Both the position numbers and the translations under genes were made by a program. From Callorhinchus milii (taxonomy: Eukaryota), in NCBI RefSeq assembly GCF_018977255.1, contig NW_024704742.1, positions 53,508,001 to 53,572,000 of the forward strand: DNA of 64,000 nt, read 5' to 3'. How positions within the stretch are numbered: position 1 is the stretch's first letter; each line of letters opens with the position of its first letter. Under the pieces are notes generated by a model, which worked only from the letters and a program-made list of their open reading frames with translations, was not told the DNA's origin and searched no databases. Positions 19,466 to 61,377 of this stretch are shown here, in pieces.

Positions 19466-19837
19466 ATAATGATAATAACAATAATAGTCCTTCATTTGAT
19501 ATAGCGCCTTATCACATCTTCAAGAGTCTCAAAGCGCTTCACAGAATATACTGTAAAGTGAATTGACTGTATATTTGTGGGCGAACGCGGCAGCCAATTG
19601 CGCACAGCAGTGTCCCACAAACAGTTGTGGATTAAGTGAACAATTTTTTTTAAAAAGGATTTATTTCCCCAGGAAAGGTGATCTGACAATCGACTAATGA
19701 CCAGGTTCCTACTTACTGCTAGGTAAACAGAGGCATGTGGAGTAAGGAAACTTGCCCAATGTTTCGCCCTGGCAGGAATCGAACCCATGTCTCGCTTGCG
19801 AGGCGAATGCTCTAACCACTGAGCTACACAGGACTCC
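19466..19837 (-). mobile_element. Young tRNA-headed SINE, long form, full length
   Basis: Minus strand GGAGTCCTGTGTAGCTCAGTGGTTAGAGC (A box, 19816-19826) and GGTTCGATTCC (B box, 19775-19785); CORE-like TTGGGCAAGTTTCCTTACTCCACATGCCTCTGTTTACC; L2-like tail. Confidence 0.95.
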
Positions 19838-32789: not shown

Positions 32790-33420
32790 AAAGAGAATTG
32801 AACATTATATGCAAAAATTTTCGAATTTGAAATAATAAATCCAGATCAATACTTTACAAAGCACCAAGGCAGCAAAACAAGAGGACATAGGTCTACAGTT
32901 GTAAAGGATAATTTCAGGACAGATACCAGATATTGGAGTCCTGTAGCTCAGTGGTTAGAGAACTTACCTTGCAAGCGAGACACCTGGGTTCAATTCCAGG
33001 CAGGGCAAAACCTTGGGCAAATTTCCTTACACCACACGCCTAATAATAATCCATCCAAAACAAAACAATAATAATAAATTGGTCATTTTTAATCCACAAC
33101 TGTTTGTGGGACACTGCTGTGTGCAATTGGCTACCGCGTTTCGCCCACAAATATACGGTCAATTCACTTTACAGCATATTCTGTGAAGCGCTTTGAGACG
33201 TCTAGAAGACATGAAAAGGCCTGTATCAAATGCAAGGATTATTATTATTATTATTATATTATAGGACTGGAACAGATTGCCAAGAAGGGTGGTTAAGGCT
33301 AGGATACTGGGCTTGTTCAAAAAGCAGCTTGATGGTGTGATGGTAGGGTGGGTATTCTGAAGGAATGAGATCAGATGGGCTAAAGGGCCTTCTTCATCCA
33401 AGCCAATCTTGTGATCTTGT
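32790..33420 (+). mobile_element. CR1 3' fragment interrupted by the SINE at 32935-33262
   Basis: TRGH...FRTD before the SINE, WNRLPRRVVKA..LGLFKKQLD after it, terminus ATGGGCTAAAGGGCCTTCTTC...CTTGTGATCTTGT. Confidence 0.75.
32935..33262 (+). mobile_element. Young tRNA-headed SINE, short form, full length
   Basis: GGAGTCCTGTAGCTCAGTGGTTAGAG, GGTTCAATTCC, CCTTGGGCAAATTTCCTTAC, tail AAATGCAAGG(ATT)n. Confidence 0.95.
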
Positions 33421-37671: not shown

Positions 37672-37994
37672 AATAATAATAATAATAATCCTTGCATTTG
37701 ATATAGCGCTTTTCACGTCGGGAGGACGTCCCAAAGCGCTTCACAGAACACACTGTAAAGTGAATTGACTGTATATTTGTGGGCGAACGCGGCAGCCAAT
37801 TGCACACAGCAATGTCCCACAAACAGTCGTAGATTGAAAAATGACCAATTTAATTATTGTTTTTGGTTTTTTGGAGGGATTATTATTAGGCGTGTGGAGT
37901 AAGGAAACTTGCCCAAGGTTTCGCCCTGCCTGGAATTGAACTCAGGTCTCTCACTTGCAAAGCGAGTGCTCTAACCACTGAGCTACAGGACTCC
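37672..37994 (-). mobile_element. Young tRNA-headed SINE, short form, full length, tail closest to young L2
   Basis: Head GGAGTCCTGTAGCTCAGTGGTTAGAGC; tail GCGCTTTGGGACGTCCTCCCGACGTGAAAAGCGCTATATCAAATGCAAGG(ATT)n. Confidence 0.95.
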
Positions 37995-43480: not shown

Positions 43481-44173
43481 TTCATCCAAAGCATATCAAA
43501 TGCAAGGATTATAATTATTATTCTGGGCATTACCTCTCACGTATGAAAATATGAAAAGAAAAAGTCAAAGGGAGAAACGTAATAGAGATTTATTTGGGAA
43601 GAATGGTGCACAGCCTGTCAGATGGGATTAAAACAGAGTAACCCACCGTTCAATGGAAAAAATGGAAAATAATTGTTATGACCATATTATGCTGAGATGT
43701 GGTGACAACACATAACCTATATGTGTAAAAATAACTATCTCTAAACAACACGGGTCCGCACACCAAAACAGATGTTGTAACTGGTGTAAGATATAAACAC
43801 CCCCTGCAACCATCTTTGATAGAACTCAGTTCAGAGGAATAGTTGCTGTCTAAGCCCATTGTCAGTGATGTGAGCATGTTTTGATGCCAACAAGAATGAT
43901 ATCTGGAAGCTAAGGGAGACAGACATGATCAGGTCCTTAAAATGACAAGAGCCATAAATGATGCAGATTCAAACAGATTATTTGTCAGACAGTGAGAACA
44001 GAACTAAAGTTAAAATTTAAAAAAAGGTGACAGTTGGAGCAGAGTTGATTGGGCATTTAAAAAGGACTTAGATAAGCAGATGTGGAGGAAGAATTTTAGA
44101 GGCTGCAGAAAAAAAGCAGAGAATTGGAATTAGGATACATAGCTTCATTAGAGGAACAAACACCAACACTAAT

Positions 44174-44279
44174 ACAATAAAAACAGACGTTGCTAGGAAC
44201 ACTCAGTTGGTCAGGCAGGATCTATGGCGAGAGGAAAGTGAGTTAACGTTTCAGGCTGATGACCTTTTGTCAGAACTGA
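44174..44279 (-). mobile_element. 106-bp Penelope-like terminal-repeat mini-element with 12-bp TSD
   Basis: ACCAACACTAAT at 44162-44173 and 44280-44291 flanks the insert; minus strand TCAGTTCTGACAAAAGGTCATCAGCCTGAAACGTTAACTC...CCTGCCTGACCAACTGAGTGTTCCTAGCAACGTCTGTTTTTATT. Confidence 0.75.
44241..44277 (-). ncRNA. Minimal type I hammerhead ribozyme motif, probably inactivated
   Basis: AGUU (stem I) CUGACAA A AGGU-caUCa-GCCU (stem II) GAAA CG UU AACU (stem I'); core CUGANGA reads CUGACAA. Confidence 0.7.
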
Positions 44280-44414
44280 ACCAACACTAATGTAATGGAT
44301 CAAATGGCCTCTTACTATGTCATCAATTTATTTAATCCTATGTGACTGAAGGCTAGACTTTCTTTCAATCTCAAAACGTATTCGTTATGTGGAATATAGT
44401 GGGATAATCTGTGA

Positions 44415-44580
44415 CATAGGAACATAAGAACAGGAGTCGGCCATTCAGCCCTTCGAGCCTTTTTCGGCATTCAATTAGATCATGGCTAATCTGTACCTCA
44501 ACTATTCCTGTCAATTCCAATTTTCCTAATATCCATTGAAACCCTGACATTTGTTGATCTGAAAAAATATTCAATTAAAT
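44415..44580 (-). mobile_element. CR1 3' terminus
   Basis: CATAGGAACATAAGAACAGGAGTCGGCCATTCAGCCCTTCGAGCC. Confidence 0.85.
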
Positions 44581-44657: not shown

Positions 44658-44948
44658 GGATGAAACCTTAGGCAAATTTCCATACTGCATATGCTTTGTT
44701 TACCTAGCAGTAAGTTGGAACCCGGATGTTAGTTGATTGGCGGATCACTTTTCTGAAGATAATAATAATCACTTTAAAAAAATTGTCACTCAATCCACAA
44801 TTGTTTGTGGAACACTGCTGTGCACAATTGCATCCCATGTTTCACCCACAAAATATACAATCAATTCACTTTACAGAATATTCTATGAAGCGCTTTGAGA
44901 CGTCTTGAAGAAATGATAAGACTCTATATCAAATGCAAGAATTATTAT
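44658..44948 (+). mobile_element. Young SINE, long form, 5'-truncated
   Basis: GAAACCTTAGGCAAATTTCC...TGTTTACCTAGCAGTAAG...TTAGTTGATTGGCGGATCAC...AAATGCAAGAATTATT. Confidence 0.9.
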
Positions 44949-45130
44949 TCAAGACTGAGATCGATAGATTTTTAAAAACTGAAGGGTTTAAGGGTTATGG
45001 GGATAGGATGGGTAAATGGAATTAGGTTAGAAGATCAGCAATGATCTTATTAAATGGCAGGGCAGGCTCAAGGGGCCGAATGGCCTACTCTTATTTCTTA
45101 TGTTCTAATATTCTTATGTTCTTATATTCT
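44949..45130 (+). mobile_element. CR1 3' terminus
   Basis: TTCAAGACTGAGATCGATAGATTTT...GGCTCAAGGGGCCGAATGGCCTACTC...(TTCTTATG)n. Confidence 0.88.
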
Positions 45131-61102: not shown

Positions 61103-61377
61103 CTAGACGTCTCTTCCAGATGTTTCAAACCGCTTCACAGAATATGCTGTAAAGCGAATTAACTGTATTATTTGTGGGCGAAACGCGGCAGCCAATTGCG
61201 CACAACAGTGTCCCACAAGCAGTCGTGGATTGAAAATGACCAATTTATTATTGTTTTGTTTTGGAGGGATTATTATTAGACGTGTGGAGTAAGGAAAGTG
61301 CCCAAGGTTTCGCCCTGCCTGGAATTGAACCCAGGTGTCTCACTTGCAAGGCAAGTGCCCTAACCACTGAGCTACAA
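61103..61377 (-). mobile_element. Young tRNA-headed SINE, short form, tail end lost
   Basis: GGAATTGAACCCAGG, CTAACCACTGAGCTACA; body as in the 37672 copy. Confidence 0.9.

Follow-up and report, generated by a model that had tools for sequence, protein, structure and literature searches.

A probable solo copy of a Penelope-like element 3'-terminal module, carrying a decayed minimal hammerhead ribozyme, in Callorhinchus milii

The 106-bp insert described here lies in a 64-kb stretch of Callorhinchus milii DNA (64,000 nucleotides; this whole stretch is referred to as the window) and very probably represents the 3'-terminal module of a Penelope-like element (PLE), present as a solo copy that is fixed, old and inactive; the PLE lineage concerned is an abundant one in the genome. 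It is a clear example of a kind of sequence that has already been described, the minimal-hammerhead module of PLEs, and not a new kind of element. There is no sign of a host function for the window copy, which is a dead relic. The original prediction was of a protein-free, hammerhead-bearing piece of a PLE that had inserted as a discrete unit, and this is borne out by the shared ends of the family to which the insert belongs, by the target-site duplication and by the linkage of the module to PLE reading frames. The coordinates of the features are collected in Table 1.

Table 1. Features of the insert and of the repeat that it interrupts (positions in the window)
Feature	Position	Strand	Basis
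Older dispersed repeat split by the insertion	44020-44340 (right end, near 44340, approximate)	+	Left part repeated in the genome; paralogues cross the site
Left copy of the target-site duplication, ACCAACACTAAT	44162-44173	.	Same as 44280-44291; single in the host-repeat paralogues
Insert: probable short, tail-less form of a PLE 3'-terminal module, decayed	44174-44279	-	Family matches; linkage to PLE frames
Segment downstream of the ribozyme to the 'short' 3' end of the family	44174-44240	-	Best-conserved part of the family; 97-98% among top matches
Minimal type I hammerhead relic	44241-44277	-	Sole descriptor match in the window with position 8 free
Helix I, AGUU / AACU	44277-44274 / 44244-44241	-	Parse of the insert
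Core box CUGACAA, with the G8-to-A change	44273-44267	-	Parse; one unpaired A after the box
Helix II, AGGU / GCCU	44265-44262 / 44256-44253	-	Parse
GAAA	44252-44249	-	Parse
ACGU, without a loop III	44249-44246	-	Parse
Predicted cleavage site, after U 44245	44245	-	Parse; cleavage-site nucleotide U (GUU)
Right copy of the target-site duplication	44280-44291	.	12/12 identical to 44162-44173

The sequence ACCAACACTAAT occurs on both sides of the 106-bp insert and is identical at 12/12 positions. Three of the five bases next to it also agree, and the duplication may extend to 17 bp with two mismatches. On its own a 12-bp direct repeat is weak evidence; six such repeats spaced 60-200 bp apart are present in the window, against 0.8 in Markov simulations. 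The repeat gains weight because it abuts the shared ends of a genome-wide family and because paralogues of the host repeat show the unoccupied site. A query with the left flank gave 91 candidates in the genome and 40 matches at 71-100% identity, the window's own place included, and the right flank used as the sole genome query matched only itself. Seven host-repeat paralogues were fetched: the 12-mer runs into sequence resembling the right flank clearly in five and partly in one, and one diverges. The paralogues L090-L093, L095 and L096 are uninterrupted across the insertion site. As the paralogues carry the 12-mer once, as unoccupied sites, it was single before the insertion. The insert is thus a true insertion into an older repeat, bracketed by a 12-bp duplication as originally proposed. 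The window copy has no inverted partner, a BLAST search of the insert against the window gave no further copies, and nothing classifiable was seen in the open frames around the host repeat, for which the original label of CR1 is thus a putative one. To the right of the insert lie two other very abundant repeats (window ~44403-44550 and 44680-44980), with huge summed contig depth in 4/4 runs; the repeat at ~44680-44980 is common to most of the 30 family loci fetched.

The window copy matches the majority of 29 other copies at 94/105 positions (89.5%). Contigs of a related species on the locus differ at 51/485 positions of the unique flank; one spans the right junction, covering 37 letters of the insert and 81 of the flank, and two from the left flank run 29 letters into the insert, just under the tool's 31-letter rule. 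The insertion is older than the split of the two species, since the relative carries it as well. An empty orthologous site, one of the checks put forward with the original prediction, was not found; the one relative examined carries the insertion. The contigs of a run guessed to be RNA (X13) differ from the unit at 17-20 of ~100 letters; these differences mark other copies of the family, so the contigs are uninformative on the window locus.

On the minus strand the parse of the insert agrees with the minimal type I hammerhead layout, with a CUGACAA box, that had been predicted. The window motif reads GAAA-CG-UU, which is the GAAA box, the palindromic pair and then U and H, as in minimal hammerheads. 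We searched with a minimal-hammerhead descriptor of our own implementation, which follows the published description in outline. With position 8 left free, the motif in the insert is its sole match on the two strands of the 64-kb window, and 20 shuffled versions of the window gave no match; the strict CUGANGA core is matched nowhere in the window. Infernal searches with the Rfam hammerhead models, a further check put forward at the outset, came back negative: there was no match in the insert region at E values up to 10, none in the window at the gathering score and none in 20 family loci at E values up to 10, some of these having intact cores. The Rfam hammerhead models are built on a motif with a helix III hairpin. 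The window copy has lost one helix II pair, and its G8 has changed to A. G8 is essential in hammerheads. A G8C change is reported by Frangieh et al. 2024 (PMC11167929) to abolish cleavage in a PLE hammerhead. As G8 is lost, the hammerhead in the window is predicted to be an inactive relic.

No Rfam match to a tRNA-, 7SL- or 5S-derived head with an internal pol III promoter was obtained within the unit. Elsewhere in the window there are four tRNA-like Rfam matches above the gathering score (37921-37992 and 61316-61376 on the minus strand, 32937-33008 on the plus strand and 19770-19828 on the minus strand), which have a common head sequence and are probably the heads of a tRNA-derived SINE family and not tRNA genes. 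A similar tRNA-like head adjoins an inverted hammerhead piece at another locus (L070).

The insert as a query gave 1967 first-look candidates in the 991-Mb assembly and 46 scored family matches with 83-100% identity, nearly all of them over positions 1-104 and with common ends, so that the copy number asked for by the original prediction is high. A query anchored on the last 62 bases gave 1370 candidates, with 44 matches listed. All counts of family copies are lower bounds from small samples. Two samples were taken: 30 copies with flanks, biased to copies that span the whole query, and 20 copies for which the last 62 bases were the only anchor. Repbase or Dfam may already list the family.

Across 55 aligned copies the core box is CUGACGA in 13, CUGAUGA in five and CUGACAA in 17. 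As CUGAUGA and CUGACAA are reciprocal products of CpG decay, the ancestral box is CUGACGA, and the suggestion that the CUGACAA of the window derives from it in this way is upheld. Both core boxes named in the original prediction occur in the family, CUGANGA in 19/55 copies and GAAA in 50/55; ACGUU is present in 37/55, and all core boxes are intact in 15/55. In the same alignment 86.1% of the cells pair in the named hammerhead structure, compared with at most 48.3% when the partners are slid, and double-sided changes are seen at 7/11 hammerhead pairs. The covariation score was reached by 0/500 shuffles, a count that is not a probability as the sequences are related. The pair that closes helix II, 10.1-11.1, is A-U in 48 copies, G-C in five and G-U in two, and is never unpaired. 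Applied to 279 kb of fetched loci, the descriptor gave 16 matches, and none in shuffles; all 16, and the window copy, need a one-base offset between A9 and helix II. These data imply that the ancestral motif of the family was a minimal hammerhead with an intact CUGANGA box, and we infer that it would have cleaved. Published minimal hammerheads cleave poorly in vitro.

The family has two fixed 3' ends ~35 bp apart. In the two samples together 24/50 copies stop at the short end, which is the type of the window copy, and 26/50 carry the tail of ~35 bp (15/30 in the first sample and 11/20 in the second). Head-to-head inverted partners were found at 8/30 and 9/20 loci, respectively, and an inverted piece of the tail lies upstream of the head at 4/20 loci of the second sample. 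Duplications of 7-9 bp abut some of the other short copies (L009, L017, L030, L022 and L011); in most of the other family copies a target-site duplication is undetectable.

The inverted partners resemble the terminal inverted repeats of a DNA transposon, and the long pairs give sub-threshold matches to microRNA hairpin models; taken with the absence of the strict core from the window copy, this might suggest that there is no retroelement end here at all, and that the insert is either a string that resembles a hammerhead by chance or an arm of a hairpin-forming DNA transposon (MITE). We consider this extremely unlikely. Solo copies far outnumber inverted pairs, the pairs are joined at positions that vary from one to another and the duplications vary in length from 7 to 12 bp. 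Further points against it are the covariation in helix II, the absence of descriptor matches from the shuffles and the association of the module with RT and GIY-YIG frames that is described below. Close to one inverted pair of the family (~150 bp away) there is a match to the mir-128 precursor with 70.9 bits against a gathering score of 49 (L080, positions 61-142; G000:C23), likely a genuine microRNA gene near which a pair of PLE stubs has inserted.

No two neighbouring copies on the same strand were found among the ~90 matches listed (46 and 44 for the two queries); all close pairs are inverted. Copies without a head-to-tail neighbour could not give a dimeric ribozyme in cis. The tandem arrays that had been thought worth seeking were not seen among these matches, and of the two identities first offered, a solo Penelope repeat or a retrozyme-like element, the former fits and the latter does not. 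As a non-LTR retrozyme monomer, the insert would derive from a tandem element that was transcribed, cut by its hammerheads, circularized and copied back. In favour of this, the hammerhead of the insert is of type I and its helix III region is palindromic, and the animal non-LTR retrozymes of Cervera and de la Pena 2020 (PMC7229834) and of the Li et al. 2026 preprint are likewise protein-free type I hammerhead repeats, related to PLE pLTRs and found as monomers scattered over the chromosomes; the preprint places them near PLE pLTRs and reports that vertebrates, one cartilaginous fish among them, have them as monomers, dimers and multimers. Retrozymes as described there, however, are tandem units each with a hammerhead, and none were found in the insert family. 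Moreover, the insert spans both sides of the cleavage site and its fixed ends lie at other points, which is not what a circle made by cutting and ligation and then opened at random would give, and the two alternative 3' ends ~35 bp apart fit the reverse-transcription starts of PLEs. We therefore regard a retrozyme origin as highly unlikely and return to the PLE module.

There is no PLE reading frame in the 64-kb window, as had been noted. A whole-genome search with the Pfam GIY-YIG model gave only two matches, both from a PLE family without the module of the window. The model fails on the GIY-YIG part of an intact 825-aa PLE and on that of a further locus (L068), and the search thus understates the PLE content of the genome. 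PLE frames from this search supplied a protein query, which led to the other PLE families of the genome; the module is present in 4/30 of the loci returned by it. At L068 a degenerate frame aligns to RT and to the GIY-YIG motif of an intact PLE, and the tailed module comes after it in the orientation of the frame; close to its end the frame has suffered an internal deletion, and an inverted partner lies on the 5' side. At L065 the order is RT, GIY-YIG, frame end, 3' UTR and then a module of the window subtype, 92% identical to a short copy. The L068 protein as a query gave 1511 candidates and 144 genome matches, many of them truncated at the 5' end. We traced eight PLE 3' ends downstream (L117-L124): the module, in matching orientation, is reached from seven of them, whereas another element interrupts the eighth. 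A further copy of the family, L004, extends into a PLE 3' UTR. The module is thus placed beyond the frame, with several hundred bases of 3' UTR in between, and the linkage to GIY-YIG and RT frames for which the original prediction had called is established by L068, L065 and seven of the eight traced ends.

The other PLE families of the genome differ from this arrangement. The intact 825-aa PLE belongs to another family that forms tandem arrays with a period of 2994 bp and in which a similarly designed hammerhead marks the 5' edge of the frame; partial tandems, or pseudo-LTRs, are present in this family (L069) and none were seen for the lineage of the module among ~90 matches. The frame is apparently intact on small contigs (L069, G000:C1063:1500-9500; also C888, C235, C1308 and others), has an RVT_1 match and a GIY-YIG-like motif by eye, and the minimal hammerhead at the 5' edge of each frame has a helix I of 8 bp, a helix II of 6 bp and a GUC cleavage site. 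Fragments of a third PLE family are clustered over ~100 kb at G000:C1:120.03-120.13 Mb (L031, L033, L035, L040-L046, L059 and L062); in the 10 kb read there were no copies of the module and no descriptor matches. Two single loci may be added. At L105 (G000:C2:51518840-51519100) the PLE tail follows directly on the GIY-YIG region without the 3' UTR and the hammerhead module, by either an internal deletion or a template jump. At L119 (G000:C4:58467810-58468210) a PLE 3' UTR is interrupted by sequence resembling the start of a LINE endonuclease frame, which explains the 913-aa open frame there.

The 5' end of the module is sharp. In the first sample similarity is lost just upstream of hammerhead helix I in 25/30 copies and extends further upstream in five. 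The second sample has 10/20 copies that start within ~9 nt of the hammerhead head, two that extend upstream and eight that start inside the unit, six of these eight adjoining an inverted copy. Random 5' truncation does not account for this edge, and our best guess is a start site or an RNA-processing site. Only one of the 20 copies (L073) begins within ~2 nt of the predicted cleavage site, so the ends lend no support to cleavage in vivo. A point ~95 nt upstream of the head was considered as a second 5' boundary and is not relied on, as it is common to only three copies (L015, L021 and L029); L004 and L065 continue past it, and L075 and L088 are limited by the stretch that was fetched.

This discrete 5' end, with so few copies reaching upstream of it, is what would be expected if the family were a self-sustaining, non-autonomous mini-retroelement, in which master copies of ~104 nt are transcribed from the 5' edge of the hammerhead and use PLE enzymes in trans, as a SINE uses those of a LINE. 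The window subtype, with A-U at 10.1-11.1 and an AUC loop, also differs at many positions from the modules on the PLE frames sampled with the L068 protein, although this contrast may reflect the choice of queries. There is a precedent in the Chlamys elements, putatively non-autonomous PLE derivatives described in the relevant part of Craig et al. 2021 (PMC8557442). On the other hand, a full-length source of the window subtype exists, because L065 has this subtype behind RT and GIY-YIG and L004 reaches a PLE 3' UTR, and the start site at the hammerhead edge is itself only putative. We regard such a mini-retroelement as possible though on balance unlikely; it refines the solo PLE module as the best explanation and does not displace it. 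More specifically, and only as a tentative and rather doubtful suggestion, the sharp edge, seen in about half of the unbiased sample, could be a transcription start or a site of RNA 5' processing, and the resulting hammerhead-headed RNAs of ~104 nt could be a protein-free lineage of PLE parasites. If so, a minimal hammerhead and a reverse-transcription entry site would be the whole cis-requirement of PLE retrotransposition, and priming on both DNA strands would have left its trace in the head-to-head palindromes. The one loose end of some interest is that the 5' end is fixed at the edge of the ribozyme.

Returning to the solo PLE module, its insertion can be pictured by analogy with the PLE of Anolis in vitro. 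The module would run from the 5' edge of the minimal hammerhead to the start of PLE reverse transcription, ~68 nt past the predicted cut. A PLE endonuclease would have nicked an A/T-rich target inside the older repeat; reverse transcription would then have proceeded from the internal 'short' site of the template, taken as a start by analogy with Frangieh et al. 2024, as far as the 5' end of the RNA, a short way upstream of the hammerhead, and repair would have left the 12-bp duplication. The ribozyme would have been carried along uncut, with G8 later changing to A through CpG decay, and the head-to-head pairs at other loci would fit priming on both strands. The template RNA may have come from either a full-length PLE or a short master copy. 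The earlier statement that the insert moved as its own unit holds for the insertion product; the source RNA lies beyond that result.

Among short dispersed retroposons that carry a hammerhead, the insert can be compared with the schistosome Sm-alpha and Sj-alpha elements, which PMC6765202, in its treatment of them, describes as SINE-like; their hammerhead is canonical and is preceded by a promoter, whereas the search for a promoter or a tRNA-like head in the insert unit gave nothing. The cleavage site of the insert family is GUU, in contrast to the commoner GUC. The minimal hammerheads of PLE pseudo-LTRs, as set out in the main text of Cervera and de la Pena 2014 (PMC4209133), are of type I and lack helix III, and have a palindromic 15.2-16.2 pair, an unpaired base after A9 and a short helix I, all of which are seen in the insert family, where helix I is 4 bp. 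According to the same text they occur massively as single dispersed copies 'probably related to truncated PLEs', with occasional close pairs on opposite strands and few copies in full PLEs, and the insert family is distributed in the same way. Two differences concern helix II: G10.1-C11.1 is highly conserved there, whereas the window subtype has A-U (with G-C in a sister subtype on PLE copies of the L068 type), and helix II is 5 bp in the insert family compared with 7-8 bp in Schistosoma. The host group is absent from that main text; the supplements of published work may list the host group or the family.

The family also agrees with the anatomy of PLE insertions as presented in the pertinent parts of Craig et al. 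2021 (PMC8557442) and Frangieh et al. 2024 (PMC11167929). The former describes heavy 5' truncation of PLEs, an inverted and 5'-truncated copy by the 5' end, a tail of 30-40 bp at either end and, in Chlamys, 3' ends common to the putatively non-autonomous derivatives and the autonomous families. The latter shows that the Anolis PLE enzyme cuts both strands at A/T-rich sites and starts reverse transcription at two adjacent internal positions, the interval between them being the tail, and that the hammerhead is dispensable for insertion in vitro, uncut RNA being the main template. The insert family has two fixed 3' ends ~35 bp apart, with about half of the copies tailed and the tail sometimes at the other end, inverted 5'-truncated partners, an A/T-rich target and a hammerhead that lies shortly upstream of the putative reverse-transcription start and was integrated uncut. 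It differs in the place of the hammerhead, which overlaps the start of the frame in the Anolis PLE and in the insert family belongs to a module after the frame and 3' UTR, with no tandem seen, and in the hot spot of 5' ends at the hammerhead head, a feature outside the PLE descriptions in those parts of the two papers. The family is a clean natural record of PLE insertion, with its two start sites ~35 bp apart, its head-to-head copies and its uncut ribozyme; it could be mined for the minimal RNA that the PLE enzyme needs, and its features agree, in a distant host, with the in vitro picture obtained for one lizard element.
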